Notes: generated from the letters alone by a model not told the origin. Positions 3,176 to 35,775 are shown, counted from the first letter of the stretch. The stretch: DNA of 64,000 nucleotides from Candidatus Latescibacterota bacterium (GCA_965217585.1 OZ244561.1:4800001-4864000), one strand, 5' to 3'. Numbers and translations: made by a program.

Positions 3176-5953
3176 CTATGATCGTTCGACTTGCACCTGA
3201 TCCTTCAGTTCGAGATCATCGAGAACCTGCCGTAGCTCGGTTTCCATGTTCTGGGCAAATTGCGACCGGACACTCACGGTAAATTCTATGCCGACGCTAA
3301 GGTCTTCCCCGGAGCGCAGCTTGGGCAGCATCTTGGTTCCTAGCCGGTTCCAGATTTCGGGAGGCACGGTGCCGGTAAGCCGAAGCGTTGTCTTTTGATT
3401 GTCTGTGTCTGGCGGGGGTTCGAGACCCGGACTAGGCTTAGACGCAGGCTCAGGCTCCGCACCAGCTTTAGGTTCGGGTTCCGTTTGCGGTGGGGGCGCA
3501 TTGGCCGTCGTCTGGAGTTGCTCGGCCTTGGCCTTGGTCACCAAGAAGACATTGGTTTCAAACGCTACTTCTTCCGTGCGGATCGGCTCCGCGTACCACA
3601 GCCGCCCGAAGCTACCATCGCTCCCGGTGCCGGATGCCAAGCCAAAATCTCCTCTCGACACGAACTCGACAATCTGCCGTTGAAGGATCGCGTCGGGGTC
3701 AATCAGCCGCGTCAATGCGCCGTTCAGAAAGCTCTGGCGCAGACTTGTGAGCGGCCAAGCGCCGGTGTCTTTGAACGCCGCCGGCCAGTGGCGATCAATG
3801 TAGCCCGCACCCACGTTCTCGTTGAGCAGGGCCTCGGATTTCAAGGCACTGATAATCCGTCCGCAGAGGGTTTCGCTGGCGCTCGCGTGGCCGGCCCCGA
3901 GGTCGATGATCTTGAGCCCATGCTTTTCCTGAGTATCCGCAAGCGCGACGAAGCGATAGCCGGCCCATACTTCGTCCTTGGCCGCGGTCTCCGCGTCCCG
4001 AACATGGGTCTGAATCTCGGCGCGGTCGGTGCGGTCGTATTCTGAGCCGAGGACGCCCTCGGACACCTCTTGCGATACGCGCTTCCAGGCGAGCCATAGC
4101 TCGACCTTATCGCGCAGTTCGCGCCCCGGTTTCCGCGCACACCACACCAGCGAACCTGGGTATAGCCGTGGCGAAGTGCCCCGCTCTTGCGTCCAATGAC
4201 CAATGCGCTCGACCACTTGGTTGCCGTTTATCCATTCCTGATCGGGGTCGAGGACGATTAGGGTGAGGCGCGGAGAATCTTGGACTGTGGTGCTGTCCTG
4301 TGGGAAGAAATTTACCGGCAGGGTTGCGCCGCGTTTGAACTCCTCCTCGACGAGTTTGCGGATCGCCGGCTTGATCTCTGTAGCCTCGTCGAGTGAAGCC
4401 CGTCGGTCGCTGACGACCTTGCGCAGTGTCGCTTGATGGTGAATGCGATAGCCGTCCGTGCCGACCGTGCGGATAAAGAACCCCGATCCTTCGATAGCTG
4501 TCGCCGCGCTGTCAATAGTCGTGGTCTCGACCTCGGGCTCGCCGAGCGCAAAGCGCAATTCCGGTAGATGGGCCACCTTGTCCACCTGTCCACCGGAGGA
4601 CTCGAACAGGATGGCCGTGCCTACCCGGCGGTGGATGTCGCGCAGCGCTCCCGTGGCGTCCGCATCTAGGGATCTGGCATGTGCCATCGGCCCGGCGAGG
4701 TCGGCGTCAATTGCCACGTCGAGCCGCGACTCGCCCAACTGGCCCAAGACCACGGCGCGAAATTCGGGCACGTCCAAAGGTGCCGACCCCAGCGTAATCA
4801 GCGATTCGGTTCGCGCCCTTGTGAACTGCTCGCGTGCGGCCCAAGAAATCCACTGCGCCAGCATGGCCAGCGCGCCTCGGGTTTGTTGGAACTGGGTGAG
4901 CGCACGCCACTTGCGCTGGAAGACCGAAAGGGTTGCCGGATGGAAGGGATAGCACGCCTCGAATCGCGCCCGCAGAAATTCTCTTGCTTTGGCCTCGGTC
5001 GTCGAGGTATCGACCGCTAGCCACTCGGTGGGTAGGCGAGCGGTGCGTTCAAAGCACCAGTCCGCGTAGGTTTTGGCGACGCGCTTGCGAATGCGCTCGT
5101 TGCCGAGATCCTCGAATAGCCGCCGGCGCACCACCTCGCTGATTTCGGATTCGTCATTGGCGATTAGGTCGCGGGCGACGCGGCGCACCACCTTGGTGAT
5201 CCGATCCTGCCACTGCTGATCCCAATCGGTCATCTCGACTTGGCTGCGCGGCAGGCTGATGACCGCAGCGGCCTGAGTGGTGCCGGTGACGGCGACGGTC
5301 AGGTTTTGTAGGAAGGCGTGGAAAGGCTCGGCCATGGGGCGATGGCGATTGACGAAGTTCAGGACTTCATCGAACAACAGCAGCACGGGCGCATCCGCAG
5401 CGGCGAATACATTGGCTAGTGCCTCGGTTCCCGGTGGTGTGGTCTGCGCGGCAGCACCGAGCGCAGCGACGCCCTTATCGCCGGCTAGTTGGCGTGCTAG
5501 GTCGATCCAAGGCGTTTCCTTGCCTTCCACAGGATCCCAGGCATTGCCGACGAAGACGCCGACGCGGGCGGGAGGAGCTTCAGCAATTCCCGCTTCGTTC
5601 AGGAGGTCCGCCACGCCGGGGAACTTAGCGGAGTCCGCGCCAGCATTGGCGATATGGTACAGGGAAGCCAGGGTATGCGTCTTGCCGCCGCCGAATTGGG
5701 TGACGAGCGTGAGGACTGGTGCTGTGTTCTCGGTCTTGCCGGAAAGACGACGGAGGACCATGCCGGCGTGTTCCTTCAGGGCGCGGGTGAAGCAGGTGCG
5801 CGAGAAAAATTGCGCTGGATCGCGGTAATCCACGGGGGCGGTTTGGGCTACGATCTGCTCAAGGGCGATGGCGAACTCGTCCGGGCTGAACGAGCGGCCT
5901 TCGCGGACTTCTTTACGGAGCGTTACGATTTTATACCAAGGGTCGAGGGCCAT
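3176..5953 (-). CDS. DUF499 family AAA+ ATPase of restriction-like defence operon
   Basis: Walker A TQFGGGKTH, Walker B LLLFDE, YPFHP motif; same operon as the DUF1156 methylase and SNF2 helicase. Confidence 0.88.
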   Translation of the reverse strand: MALDPWYKIVTLRKEVREGRSFSPDEFAIALEQIVAQTAPVDYRDPAQFFSRTCFTRALKEHAGMVLRRLSGKTENTAPVLTLVTQFGGGKTHTLASLYHIANAGADSAKFPGVADLLNEAGIAEAPPARVGVFVGNAWDPVEGKETPWIDLARQLAGDKGVAALGAAAQTTPPGTEALANVFAAADAPVLLLFDEVLNFVNRHRPMAEPFHAFLQNLTVAVTGTTQAAAVISLPRSQVEMTDWDQQWQDRITKVVRRVARDLIANDESEISEVVRRRLFEDLGNERIRKRVAKTYADWCFERTARLPTEWLAVDTSTTEAKAREFLRARFEACYPFHPATLSVFQRKWRALTQFQQTRGALAMLAQWISWAAREQFTRARTESLITLGSAPLDVPEFRAVVLGQLGESRLDVAIDADLAGPMAHARSLDADATGALRDIHRRVGTAILFESSGGQVDKVAHLPELRFALGEPEVETTTIDSAATAIEGSGFFIRTVGTDGYRIHHQATLRKVVSDRRASLDEATEIKPAIRKLVEEEFKRGATLPVNFFPQDSTTVQDSPRLTLIVLDPDQEWINGNQVVERIGHWTQERGTSPRLYPGSLVWCARKPGRELRDKVELWLAWKRVSQEVSEGVLGSEYDRTDRAEIQTHVRDAETAAKDEVWAGYRFVALADTQEKHGLKIIDLGAGHASASETLCGRIISALKSEALLNENVGAGYIDRHWPAAFKDTGAWPLTSLRQSFLNGALTRLIDPDAILQRQIVEFVSRGDFGLASGTGSDGSFGRLWYAEPIRTEEVAFETNVFLVTKAKAEQLQTTANAPPPQTEPEPKAGAEPEPASKPSPGLEPPPDTDNQKTTLRLTGTVPPEIWNRLGTKMLPKLRSGEDLSVGIEFTVSVRSQFAQNMETELRQVLDDLELKDQVQVERS

Positions 5954-32230: not shown

Positions 32231-32767
32231 GTGTTCCTAGCCCGTAAAATCTCGCTCGCGAAGTGGTCGAAAAAAGGCGAGTTGGCGGAGGGCGAGATTC
32301 CGGCAGATGCCGTGACCGCGGACCTGCGAACGCAAGACAACAAGCTTTTATTCTGGAGATGCGGCGACGGGGAGGGAATAGAAGTCAACGAGGCCGTACT
32401 GGCACTAGCCGCCGCGGGAACTAGCGTCGATAAAATTGATGTTGTTTGGTTGGCTGCCGATGAACTACGCTCCGACGGTCAAACTTTGCAAGATACCAAG
32501 GGACGAACCCCTGTCCTTGAGTTGGCCGAATTACACGTTGATGTGTGCCGATTGGATTACATGCGCCTCGGAAAGGTCGCTCAACACATTTTTACCGCAA
32601 TCCAAAAGGATCAGTACCTTCGGCTTGGGAAAGCGCGTGTCAAGCAACTCTTGGCGGAGGCGGTCAAACAAGAGCGTATTAACCCTAACGATCTCCAGAA
32701 GCGCGTTCGTGAGGAGCCAGGGCAATCGCATCAAAAGTGCCCAGCGGACAATACTTTAGCCAAATAG
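32231..32767 (+). CDS. Hypothetical protein whose last codons are replaced by ISAs1 sequence (original end REELGL* at 33979..33999)
   Basis: Removing the IS and one TSD restores CGT GAG GAG CTT GGT CTG TGA. Confidence 0.7.
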   Translation: MFLARKISLAKWSKKGELAEGEIPADAVTADLRTQDNKLLFWRCGDGEGIEVNEAVLALAAAGTSVDKIDVVWLAADELRSDGQTLQDTKGRTPVLELAELHVDVCRLDYMRLGKVAQHIFTAIQKDQYLRLGKARVKQLLAEAVKQERINPNDLQKRVREEPGQSHQKCPADNTLAK

Positions 32768-33978
32768 GTGTTATCCCATCCGGCCTTGAGCCGTTTGGTC
32801 TGGACGCCGACCTTGGCCGTCTTCTCTTGCTGGAGCAGACTCACGGCAATCTGTCGCAGGAGGGCCATATTTTCCGGGGCATGGCCGGTGCGTACCCGTG
32901 AGTCATCTTCACGGAAGACCACATCCAGTATCCAGTGCAAGGAATTTTCAATGCTCCAATGACTACGCACCGCTTCACCAAACCGCTGGGCATCGTTGTC
33001 CAGGCTGGAGATATAGTAGCGTCGTTCCACGGAGACTTGATCGCCTACCTGTCGCTGGGCTTCAACCATACCGAACAAGCCTAAGCCCTTCCAAGCGGTC
33101 CCATCGGCAAAAGCGTCGACCTGATCGGTGGTCCAGTACCGGCGGGTCTCAATGCGGCCGTGGTTTTCATCGTAGGTCTCAAACATGTCGACCGATAGAT
33201 CCTGATGCAGTTGAGGCTCCCCTCGGTCGAAGACCTGACGCAGATGATGCAACAGCTTGGGCTGATTAGCCTTGACGGCCAGTACGTAGTCGCCTTGCCG
33301 GTCGATGACCTGTTCGGCCACGCTTTTGTGGCAGCCGATGGCATCGACGGTGACGATGCAGCCTTTGAGCGCCAGCACACGCAGCAGTTCGGGAATGAGG
33401 GTGATCTCGTCCAGACCGCCTTCACAGTGGAACTGGCCTAACACCAGTCGGTTTTTCACCGCCCAGGCATTGACCATATGTACGGCTGCTTTACCCGAGG
33501 TTCGGTCATAAGAGTGGCGCAACGTTTTGCCATCAATAGGCACAATCTCTTCCTCAAGCTTGGGGAGGAGGGATTGGACCCAAGCACTGAAACAGTCCTG
33601 GAAATGCTCGGGCGAGATCCGGGCGAAGACGCGGCCGAAGGTGTCATGGGAAGGAATGCCATTGGGCAACGCCAGAAAGGTTTTTAGCCAGTCGTATTTG
33701 GATCGCCCAAACTCAGCGATATGCACCCAGTTGTCGGCCCCGCAGATCGCGCCACACACGGCAATGACCACAATATCGATGAGACGATGCCTTTGGCTGC
33801 GCTCGATACGGGGATCGGGTACCTGGGAAAAATGTTCAATCAGTGAATCAGCCGAAGGTGCCATGGGGAAACGTTCCAAGAGAAGGGGAGAGAAGCAGCG
33901 CACCAGCGCTATCGAAAAAGACACAGAAAATATAACATAACCCTATGACAAATCTCAATTTTTGGTGCGATTGCCCTG
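32718..33978 (-). mobile_element. ISAs1-family insertion sequence, complete
   Basis: TIRs CAGGGCAATCGCA(T/C)CAAAA; 10-bp TSD CGTGAGGAGC at 32708..32717 and 33979..33988. Confidence 0.96.
32731..33864 (-). CDS. ISAs1 family transposase
   Basis: DPR, GIPSHDTF, IDGKTLR, TVDA, VKANQ, HGRIE.R, HWSIENSLHW. Confidence 0.96.
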   Translation of the reverse strand: MAPSADSLIEHFSQVPDPRIERSQRHRLIDIVVIAVCGAICGADNWVHIAEFGRSKYDWLKTFLALPNGIPSHDTFGRVFARISPEHFQDCFSAWVQSLLPKLEEEIVPIDGKTLRHSYDRTSGKAAVHMVNAWAVKNRLVLGQFHCEGGLDEITLIPELLRVLALKGCIVTVDAIGCHKSVAEQVIDRQGDYVLAVKANQPKLLHHLRQVFDRGEPQLHQDLSVDMFETYDENHGRIETRRYWTTDQVDAFADGTAWKGLGLFGMVEAQRQVGDQVSVERRYYISSLDNDAQRFGEAVRSHWSIENSLHWILDVVFREDDSRVRTGHAPENMALLRQIAVSLLQQEKTAKVGVQTKRLKAGWDNTYLAKVLSAGHF

Positions 33979-34064
33979 CGTGAGGAGCTTGGTCTGTGAG
34001 ACGGAGAAGCCAAGTCAAGATAGAGGAAATAGCGGTAGTGGTTCAGTTTGAAATCTTATAGTCT

Positions 34065-34092
34065 TTGACGCAACGCACACAAAGTATAAAAT
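34065..34092 (+). promoter_or_regulatory. Putative sigma70 promoter inside the TIR element
   Basis: TTGACG-16 bp-TAAAAT. Confidence 0.5.
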
Positions 34093-34208
34093 TAAACGCA
34101 GTAGCACTTCATAGCCCCGCTGGCTTCCTCACGGAGAAAGCGGGGCGTCCCCTCTGCCCTTTAGCGTTAGCCGACGCTAAAGGGCGTAACCACGGGAGAC
34201 CAATTCCT

Positions 34209-34565
34209 ATGGCTACTTCCAATATTACCATTTCTCCCCAGCTTCAACAAACTCCTCGCCCTGACATTGGCGATCTTGTCGTTTGCCGAATAATTTCGCC
34301 CAAGGAGCACAGTTATTGGGTTGTTAAAGAGGTGTCGATGGTTGACAGTGTCGGTACGATCACGCATGTGTGCGCGGTTGGTTCTCCCCATGTGCAAAGC
34401 AAGATGTCCGAATTCGCCGAATATAAAACACCTCTCGATCAAGCGCTTATGAAGGGATTTGTCCACGCCCATCATGTTCAGCGCGACCACGCTGGAAGGA
34501 TTGATAAGGTGTTACCTGCCAACTGTGACATAAACCAATTCTTCGATATTTTCGAGTGTCGATAG
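34209..34565 (+). CDS. Hypothetical passenger protein
   Basis: ATG with GGGAG RBS; 118 aa; no recognised motif. Confidence 0.55.
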   Translation: MATSNITISPQLQQTPRPDIGDLVVCRIISPKEHSYWVVKEVSMVDSVGTITHVCAVGSPHVQSKMSEFAEYKTPLDQALMKGFVHAHHVQRDHAGRIDKVLPANCDINQFFDIFECR

Positions 34566-34672
34566 CCCGACAATGACTCCAGATGACTTCGACGAATACA
34601 CTGATAGAGAAATCATCATAACGGTCAATAGCCTGTTGCAGGCGAATCGCCTCTTTACAGAAAGGAAGCACA

Positions 34673-35197
34673 ATGATAATCATCCTTATTGCACTTATGC
34701 TATTGCTATGTGTTCCGATGGAAAGTTGGACCAAGCACAAACCAATGGATAAACACCTAATTATTTATATTTTTCAGCAAATGTTTAAAGAAGTTGGCGG
34801 ACCCGAAACAGTACATATCGTACTTAGCGCGATTCAAGAATCAAAAACAGACGACGATCTTGAAATAGTGCTAAAGGCCGCCAAAATAGACCCCAAAAAA
34901 GCAATGAGAGCATTTACAGGGTCATCCATTGTCCTTCAAATGGTCAATGGTGGAATACCAACAGACCAAGCAATAGCAATCACAAAACAAACTCTACCAG
35001 AGGAATTAGAAAAAGATTATTCTGCTGCTTCTGTCCTTGTACTAGCCTTTAAAAACAAAGGGGAACCCATAGACTCAACTAAGGTAGCCAAGACATTGCG
35101 ACAGGCCGAACTATTACTACATACAGGACTCGATTCTAAAGTATCATTTAAAGAAAATGGCCTCGACTTAAATGTATTATTACATAAAGAGGACTAG
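34673..35197 (+). CDS. Hypothetical passenger protein with hydrophobic N-terminus
   Basis: 174-aa AT-rich ORF, AGGA RBS. Confidence 0.6.
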   Translation: MIIILIALMLLLCVPMESWTKHKPMDKHLIIYIFQQMFKEVGGPETVHIVLSAIQESKTDDDLEIVLKAAKIDPKKAMRAFTGSSIVLQMVNGGIPTDQAIAITKQTLPEELEKDYSAASVLVLAFKNKGEPIDSTKVAKTLRQAELLLHTGLDSKVSFKENGLDLNVLLHKED

Positions 35198-35249
35198 AAC
35201 TAATATCCAATGGAAATATTTTTCAAACTGAACCACTACCAAATAGCCA

Positions 35250-35522
35250 ATGGAGATTCATACTTACCGGAGCGTCTGGGATGCCATTGCGGATAGCCCC
35301 GAAGAAGCGGCCAATCTCAAGTTCCGCTCTCAGCTAATGGATGCCATAAAGGCATACATTGATCACGAAAATATCACTCAGAAAGAGGCCGCCAAACGGC
35401 TTGGTGTGCCGCAATCGCGTGTGAGTGAACTCGTCAATGGCCGAATCAGCAAATTCACCATCGACAAGCTAGTGAACATGGCCGCACGGGTTGGGCTGAC
35501 TACTCGGATTACTGTCAGATAG
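35250..35522 (+). CDS. XRE-family HTH (HigA-like antitoxin), no cognate toxin
   Basis: SVWDAI..A.NLK.RS.LM, TQKEAAKRLGVPQSRVSEL..G.I.KF.ID.L. Confidence 0.88.
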   Translation: MEIHTYRSVWDAIADSPEEAANLKFRSQLMDAIKAYIDHENITQKEAAKRLGVPQSRVSELVNGRISKFTIDKLVNMAARVGLTTRITVR

Positions 35523-35534
35523 GAGATCAACCCC

Positions 35535-35756
35535 ATGTACCAGATAACCGCTCGCGTACCCGATGACCTAGCCAAAGCACTAGACGAGGCCGCTGCGGAG
35601 CTCAAACGGAGCCGCGCCGCCATCATTCGCCAAGCATTGGAGCGATACCTAGAGGATCTCGACGACCTCAGCGTAGCTTTGGAGCGGCTGCGCGATCCTG
35701 CCGACCCGGTGCTGGATTGGGATCAGGTCCGGCATGAACTACTCAATTCGGATTAA
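35535..35756 (+). CDS. RHH/CopG antitoxin (RelB-like)
   Basis: ITARVPDDLAKALD..A..L.RSR..IIRQALERYLEDLDDL; ends DWDQVRHEL. Confidence 0.85.
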   Translation: MYQITARVPDDLAKALDEAAAELKRSRAAIIRQALERYLEDLDDLSVALERLRDPADPVLDWDQVRHELLNSD

Positions 35757-35775
35757 GCGCCACGCCGCCACAAGG
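35734..35775 (+). pseudogene. N-terminal stub of a RelE/ParE toxin
   Basis: MNYSIRIKRHA overlapping the antitoxin end, then runs directly into the RBS of the next gene. Confidence 0.6.

Follow-up and report, generated by a model that had tools for sequence, protein, structure and literature searches.

A probable mobile insertion cassette with IS1-type ends and two orphan genes in front of a HigA-like gene of a Latescibacterota bacterium

How does a gene come to stand without a ribosome-binding site, directly behind 1.2 kb of DNA that is far richer in A and T than the rest of its genome? The question is raised by a gene of an uncultured bacterium, Candidatus Latescibacterota, within a stretch of 64,000 nucleotides (GCA_965217585.1 OZ244561.1:4800001-4864000). 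The whole stretch is called the window here, and its positions are counted from its first letter. The gene (35250-35522, plus strand) encodes a 90-aa HigA-like DNA-binding protein with a helix-turn-helix (HTH) domain (PF13744 HTH_37, E = 6.8e-24). Both of its peculiarities are accounted for by an insert of 1207 bp. The gene lacks a ribosome-binding site because the insert has displaced GAGG, its Shine-Dalgarno-like motif (34023-34026, plus strand), from the ATG at 35250, and the same insert makes up the AT-rich stretch. The insert is very probably a mobile insertion cassette (MIC), a transposase-less member of a passenger-carrying lineage of the IS1 family.

The insert is bounded by perfect inverted repeats of 20 bp. 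The left repeat, GGTAGTGGTTCAGTTTGAAA, occupies 34034-34053 on the plus strand, and the right one, its exact reverse complement, is found at 35221-35240 on the minus strand. Each is bipartite, with GGTAGTG and TTTGAAA on either side of a variable hexamer. Even when up to three mismatches are allowed, the 20-mer occurs at only these two places in the window, and it was matched in none of 100 shuffled sequences. Directly outside the repeats lie the two copies of a 7-bp target-site duplication, AAATAGC (left copy 34027-34033, right copy 35241-35247); the ATG of the HTH gene comes after the right copy. The duplication is one base shorter than the 8 bp that are usual in the family described below, and the eighth base differs between the two sides.

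With its repeats, the element has a G+C content of 43.0%, compared with 59.5% for the 7.32-Mb genome, and the right half of the insert falls to about 39%. No second copy of the interior exists in the window's genome, so that the insert is single-copy there. The first-pass annotation of this DNA had described 1207 bp between perfect 20-bp repeats and an AAATAGC duplication, with an AT-rich interior, and the repeats, their coordinates and the composition bear this description out.

Related genomes preserve the locus in several states. In these relatives, the HigA-like gene is preceded by a gene for a 165-aa protein without a Pfam match, and the two are separated by a spacer of 36 bp. Close orthologues of the upstream gene (93-96% identity) were found in four other genomes and weaker homologues (57-58%) in two. 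The stop codon of the upstream gene, used as an anchor, matched the four close loci (G011, G012, G022 and G041) and not the two at 57-58%.

An empty site, which had been suggested earlier as something to look for, is present in two of the four orthologous loci compared. Genome G012 reads ...TGA GACGGAGAAGCCAAGTCAAGATAGAGGAAATAGCCAATGGAG..., and G041 has AGATAGC instead of AAATAGC. Both sites take the form ...GATAGAGG-A(A/G)ATAGC-CAATGGAG..., with one copy of the 7-mer, no insert, and GAGG nine bases before the ATG. Removal of the insert had been predicted to restore GAGG-AAATAGC-CA-ATG, and this arrangement is kept in both genomes, with A(A/G)ATAGC as the 7-mer. The two sites also agree with the claim that the element landed between the Shine-Dalgarno motif and the start codon of the HigA-like gene. 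A joint from 34026 to 35241 in one metagenome run equals the empty site as well; it is weak, with 23 letters on its shorter side, and may come from a relative. The insertion would be expected to impair translation of the HTH gene.

The other two loci are occupied. In G022, a different member of the family lies directly after the stop codon of the upstream gene. In G011, a copy of the insert is placed identically to that of the window and is 98.3% identical to it (21 differences in 1207 bases); its right repeat has one extra base and its right-hand 7-mer is AAATGGC. The two inserts are more alike than their flanks. Between the window's genome (G000) and G011, identity is 95.2% over 1717 bases upstream, 92.1% over 277 bases of the HTH gene and 91.2% over 875 bases downstream. 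Either constraint or a later spread of the occupied allele could have produced this closer likeness. The cassette has been seen at this one orthologous site, in these two genomes.

The surroundings of the insert hold further signs of mobile DNA. The 165-aa gene (32231-32717 together with 33979-33999) and the HTH gene resemble a two-gene toxin-antitoxin-like pair, and in the window's genome both have been hit by mobile elements. An ISAs1-type insertion sequence at 32718-33978 separates the 165-aa gene from its last codons. The ends of this insertion sequence are CAGGGCAATCGCA..., the target duplication, of 10 bp, is CGTGAGGAGC, and the transposase is encoded on the minus strand at 32731-33924 (Pfam DDE_Tnp_1_assoc and DDE_Tnp_1). 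Metagenome contigs from three runs have a form that is identical over 33979-35459 and is without this element (joint 32707 to 33979), and the ISAs1-type insertion is therefore recent and polymorphic. On the other side, a ribbon-helix-helix (CopG) gene at 35535-35756 is an insertion/deletion difference (window 35518-35771). Its place is taken by about 29 bases in G011 and by 28-29 other letters in several metagenome contigs.

What does the insert carry? Near the left repeat, a promoter-like site faces the cargo (TTGACG-16-TAAAAT, 34065-34092, plus strand); it is a pattern match only, with 10 of 12 matches in a consensus scan. It is followed on the same strand, at 34093-34210, by a leader with two strong predicted hairpins, including a perfect 12-bp stem (34156-34167 with 34174-34185). 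The RNA fold of the leader was computed at -52.4 kcal/mol (z = -5.2), and none of 200 shuffles folded as well. ARAGORN found no tRNA gene in the insert, and Rfam gave no family at E <= 1.

Two reading frames follow on the plus strand: ORF1 (34209-34565), with 118 aa, and ORF3 (34673-35197), with 174 aa. A third frame of 59 codons (34573-34752, plus strand, 59 aa) overlaps ORF3 and is a doubtful gene; in one metagenome relative (P0002) the gene caller joined its start to ORF3 in a single frame. None of the three has a Pfam match at E <= 0.1, and the two unknown ORFs that had been reported inside the element are recovered as ORF1 and ORF3. Neither resembles a transposase, whether judged by Pfam or by the transposase profile described below.

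Relatives of both proteins are few. A search of 5.8 billion proteins yielded five for ORF1 and two for ORF3, all of them near-identical or short. ORF1 was found in 3 of the 31 genomes of the genus and ORF3 in 6. An ORF1 profile matched 4 of 168 genomes in a sample of the phylum, all four within the genus and one of them marginal. Homologues of ORF3 with 22-39% identity are present in four other genomes of the genus, in addition to the 96% copy in G011. Metagenome contigs scanned with the ORF1 alignment and with ORF3 gave no relative.

The alignments indicate that both frames are conserved as proteins, and that of ORF1 has 23 invariant columns. Between G000 and G011, ORF1 has 1 change in 357 bases and is far better conserved than the rest of the insert. 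Of the 6 changes in ORF3, one, a 1-base deletion at 35081, disrupts the G011 reading frame.

Structure prediction offers some description of the two orphan proteins. The AlphaFold model of ORF1 has five strands and a small beta-barrel core at residues 23-73 (block-mean pLDDT 68-87 over residues 21-70, overall mean 60.8). That of ORF3 is all-helical (pLDDT 85.9, pTM 0.78) and has a hydrophobic N-terminus resembling a signal peptide; the product is probably a secreted helical protein. At E <= 0.001, Foldseek matched neither model to a PDB structure. The highest-ranking of the weak hits for ORF1 were Tudor and chromo-barrel folds. A protein atlas gave a tentative lead (0.90) from ORF1 to S1/OB-type exosome domains, to be read as a lead only, and nothing for ORF3.

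The ends of the insert belong to a family. With mismatches allowed, the motif GGTAGTG-N6-TTTGAAA finds further ends in the window's genome, which share the outer and inner blocks and vary in the middle. One pair (1158501-1159530) bounds an element of 1030 bp with an 8-bp direct repeat, CCTCTTTG. Eight other ends are solo, and local alignment over 15 kb found no convincing partner for them. Three further pairs, 78-79 bp long, are without a flanking repeat.

Short facing pairs of 39-79 bp without a flanking direct repeat are located at G000:C1:601436-601514, 2134471-2134548, 7247653-7247731 and 2757643-2757681. Pairs of this kind are also seen in relatives, at one end of a longer element which does have a duplication (L056), and they may be inner structures rather than MITEs.

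The first-pass annotation had proposed a genome-wide search for the repeat and had counted a lack of other copies against its own reading. Copies of the end motif were found. Among 41 genomes, the exact motif GGTAGTGN6TTTGAAA has 135 matches, compared with 1 for a reversed control, and it occurs in 20 of the 41, the window's own included. Within the genus, 16 of 24 other genomes contain it, as do 3 of 12 in a second family and 0 of 4 in two further families.

Twenty of the motif places were fetched, and 15 have a facing end pair. Ten of these pairs are flanked by a perfect 8-bp direct repeat (L038, L039, L041-L046, L048 and L050, a 17-kb element being among them), one by a repeat with 7 of 8 bases (L051) and one by an imperfect repeat (L053); three have no repeat (L040, L049 and L052). 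The facing pairs bound elements of 79 bp to 17 kb whose contents are unrelated, as would follow from the earlier suggestion that the same kind of ends carries different cargo at other loci.

Two oddities were seen among the fetched places. At L047:554-601 (G001), two family ends face outward with exactly 8 bases between them (TCAAAATA); they may belong to two elements that lie side by side with one duplication in common, or they may mark an end-to-end junction. A family member whose transposase is broken contains, at L041:1559-1630 (G022), an odd ARAGORN call of tRNA-SeC(tca). Only three tRNA calls were made in 29 loci, and the other two lie outside an element or inside a transposase gene.

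Which enzyme recognises these ends? Five of the elements contain a frame of 260-292 aa that has an HTH-like start and runs into one inverted repeat. All five match PF03400 (DDE_Tnp_IS1) with 33.0-46.3 bits (cut-off 24.1), and this is the best match of each and the only one above cut-off. An autonomous partner, for which a search had been recommended, is thus available in other genomes of the genus. The likeness to IS1 had first been put forward from the ends alone; it is now supported by the PF03400 matches in elements with the same motif and by one element, L038, both of whose ends are identical to the 20-bp repeat of the insert. L038 is 2895 bp long and has an 8-bp repeat, AAAAATCG. Only the 20-21 terminal bases are common to its ends and those of the insert, too little to name the exact parent of the cassette.

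A transposase and one to four passenger frames are enclosed by one end pair in L038, L039, L040, L045, L048 and the element of G022. Six transposases align at 46-63% identity and share the block VERQNLT.RM..RR.TR.TNGFSK. Their invariant residues D67, D139 and E192 are likely, from the alignment, to be the DDE triad. The partners are encoded in one open frame and not as an InsA/InsB frameshift pair.

The lineage extends well beyond the genus, of which 16 of 30 other genomes match the transposase profile at E <= 0.001. A scan of one genome per species gave at least 600 pattern matches in many phyla, and 593 of those listed were confirmed by tblastn. Of the best 79 loci that encode this transposase, the relaxed motif forms a facing pair in 63, and in 54 the two 8-bp flanks agree or differ at a single base; the flank sequences vary from site to site. 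The 54 well-duplicated elements measure 1336-4778 bp (median 2858 bp). Since a bare insertion sequence of this kind would have about 1 kb, nearly all of them carry passengers. A recurrent passenger, present in 26 of the 54 (loci L084-L162, other phyla), is a small basic protein with about 85-120 aa. Other passengers in these loci, judged by eye, resemble XRE-peptidase fusions, HigB/HigA-like pairs and a DNA methyltransferase.

A member of the lineage has also come close to the insertion point itself. The autonomous element of G022, a genome of another species (L079:576-5685), is 5110 bp long, has an 8-bp repeat, GGCTGTGA, and lies about 30 bp upstream of the point at which the window's element was inserted. 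Inside it, an ORF3-like and an ORF1-like gene flank an IS1-type transposase gene, and there is an extra inner right end at 5089-5108. The order and orientation of these genes are those of the window's cargo read from the other end, and the homologues of both ORFs have 36-39% identity. The same 36-bp spacer has thus been hit independently by two family members. Another ORF1-like gene of G022 adjoins a more distant IS1-type transposase.

The window's own genome is without such an enzyme. PF03400 has no match in it, while control searches were positive in E. coli and Methanosarcina acetivorans, and tblastn with the five partner transposases gave no hit at E <= 0.01. A profile made from the six sequences found one faint remnant in this genome (1159139-1159270; 13.7 bits, E = 0.157), which matches the last 47 profile positions and lies beside an inner end of the 1030-bp element. 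Applied to the insert, the same profile gives scores below 0 bits in each of the six frames. The interior is therefore not a decayed transposase, an outcome that the first-pass annotation had listed among those that would tell against it. With no transposase inside and none of the matching kind in the genome, the cassette is stranded.

The absence of a transposase from the insert can be explained in two ways. Either the cassette was moved without one, by an enzyme supplied in trans, or a full-length IS1-type element was inserted at this site and lost its transposase afterwards by deletion in place. In the second case, the cassette would never have moved as a transposase-less unit, and there would be no shuttle. 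The transposase of the G022 element is flanked by the two gene families, and one internal deletion would give the window's layout. The cassette is also single-copy in its genome and sits at the identical site in G011, and two transposase-less elements of G001 (L043 and L044) keep C-terminal remnants of a transposase beside an end. In the insert, however, no such remnant is left. L042, L043 and L044 are transposase-less relatives with shared cargo, at different sites and with perfect duplications. A metagenome contig (X9, record 25; 3281 bases) matches the element from 34035 on and departs from it by 19 letters and 12 gaps in 823 bases. Its preceding 2448 bases are not those of the window's left flank, a hint that the cassette also occurs in another context. 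Loss of the transposase in place is possible on this evidence, though on the whole rather unlikely.

A quite different enzyme was also considered. If the cassette were of the tyrosine-recombinase type, its two ends and the 7-bp repeat would be joined in a circular form as a lox-like site (arm, 7-bp spacer, arm), and insertion would be carried out by a Cre-like recombinase wherever the target offers the matching 7-mer. Only two Cre-like genes, 63% identical, are present in the genome; both lie within about 200-560 bp of a family end, and four of five full-length homologues in the genus have a family end within about 60-560 bp. In the autonomous copies, however, the gene next to one end is that of an IS1 DDE transposase, and most of these copies are without a recombinase. 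Where a Cre/lox-like system would have a shared crossover core and no variable duplication, the 8-bp flanks at the 54 loci are unrelated, as expected of staggered cuts by a transposase. The target arms, compared by eye, are also unlike the element's arms. Insertion by a recombinase is thus highly improbable, and the lox-like reading was dropped on the variable 8-bp duplications and the IS1 transposases inside the ends.

The two Cre-like genes themselves (Pfam Phage_integrase) are at G000:C1:1232547-1233473 and 3359222-3360226 (L169 and L170). They are more likely to be passengers, and may be passengers or resolvases of large members of the family; the IS1 model treats their position beside family ends as passenger carriage only.

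Hardly any weight can be given to an IS family other than IS1 whose ends start with GG and whose duplications have 8 bp (IS6, IS1595, ISL3 or IS256), or to a chance inverted repeat without mobility: the ends of the insert may loosely resemble IS6-type ends, and one partner has a sub-threshold match to PF13610 DDE_Tnp_IS240 (22.4 bits, cut-off 27), but PF03400 is the best and sole above-cut-off match in all five partners, and chance is excluded by the shuffles, the empty sites and the family of ends.

The best explanation is therefore an IS1-family cassette without a transposase, presumably moved by one encoded elsewhere. A single-ORF IS1-type DDE transposase would recognise the bipartite ends, with GGTAGTG, six variable bases and TTTGAAA. 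It would make a staggered cut in the target, the repair of which would leave a short direct repeat, of 8 bp as a rule and of 7 bp here. The cassette would have landed in the 36-bp spacer between the 165-aa gene and the HigA-like gene, between the Shine-Dalgarno motif and the ATG. With it would have come two orphan genes behind a promoter-like site and a structured leader. ORF1 would code for a small beta-barrel protein, ORF3 for a helical protein that is probably secreted. We infer that the transposase was supplied in trans, rather than lost after landing. Some observations fit this explanation less well. The duplication has 7 bp instead of the family's 8, the cassette is known from one orthologous site (G000 and G011), its likeness to L038 is confined to the terminal bases, both Cre-like genes lie beside family ends, and the three 78-79 bp pairs without a duplication in the window's genome are left unexplained.

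A further, improbable suggestion is that ORF1 and ORF3 are a co-travelling module of the IS1 lineage that serves the element or the host. In its favour are the matching arrangement of distant homologues of both in the G022 element, the position of the second ORF1-like gene of G022 beside a transposase, and the close conservation of ORF1 between G000 and G011. Such a module could explain why a stranded cassette has been retained in front of an antitoxin-like gene. If the suggestion were true, a beta-barrel protein and a secreted helical protein behind a structured leader would act in an undescribed way.

The case documents, for one element, its ends, its duplication, empty sites, an occupied orthologous site and autonomous partners, with no partner found in the host. 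For an uncultured lineage, it suggests how IS1-type elements carry small genes from one locus to another, with cassettes that lack a transposase left in their wake. The end motif and the 8-bp duplication serve a clade of transposases in many phyla, whose members nearly all carry passengers. Two conserved orphan proteins can now be flagged as travelling with IS1-type elements.

The element belongs to a kind of mobile element that is already known, and no new mechanism is involved. In the IS1 family, the ends start with GGnnnTG and the duplication has 8-9 bp, according to the ISfinder rule. The GGTAGTG at both ends of the window's element fits this start; the partners have PF03400 matches above cut-off and 8-bp duplications, and their element sizes of 1.3-4.8 kb imply passengers. 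The window's element differs from the family in having no transposase and a 7-bp duplication. Classical IS1 makes its transposase from two frames, InsA and InsB', by frameshifting, whereas the partners have a single frame of 260-292 aa with an HTH start. They presumably fit the single-ORF branch of the family that carries passengers, the "ISMhu11-like" group of ISfinder.

Insertion sequences with passenger genes are termed transporter IS (tIS) in the sections of the literature that deal with them (PMC9330008, PMC7986276, PMC3129680). The full-length relatives (L038, L039, L040, L045, L048 and the G022 element) qualify as tIS, and the window's element is a transposase-less derivative. The founding paper of the tIS concept is reportedly that of Siguier et al. 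2009, on IS1595 and IS1.

In the definition given by one paper (PMC3129680), MICs are IS ends that flank genes unrelated to transposition, lack a transposase and are presumed to be moved by a cognate one; they were first described as MIC231 in the Bacillus cereus group. The window's element is like a MIC in its IS ends, its lack of a transposase, its transposition-unrelated genes, its target duplication and the empty sites elsewhere. MIC231 goes back to IS231 of the IS4 family, the window's element to an IS1-type lineage; the latter also belongs to an uncultured bacterium and has orphan cargo. De Palmenaer 2004 is said to be the reference for MICs.

MITEs are likewise non-autonomous and have IS ends and a target duplication, but they are short and non-coding, while the window's element, of 1.2 kb, holds two reading frames that are conserved. 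Integron gene cassettes and Xer-dependent pdif modules, finally, are also enzyme-free cargo moved by an enzyme encoded elsewhere. They differ in depending on tyrosine recombinases, in having structured or full recombination sites and in lacking a variable target duplication; for the element described here, the evidence points to a DDE transposase.
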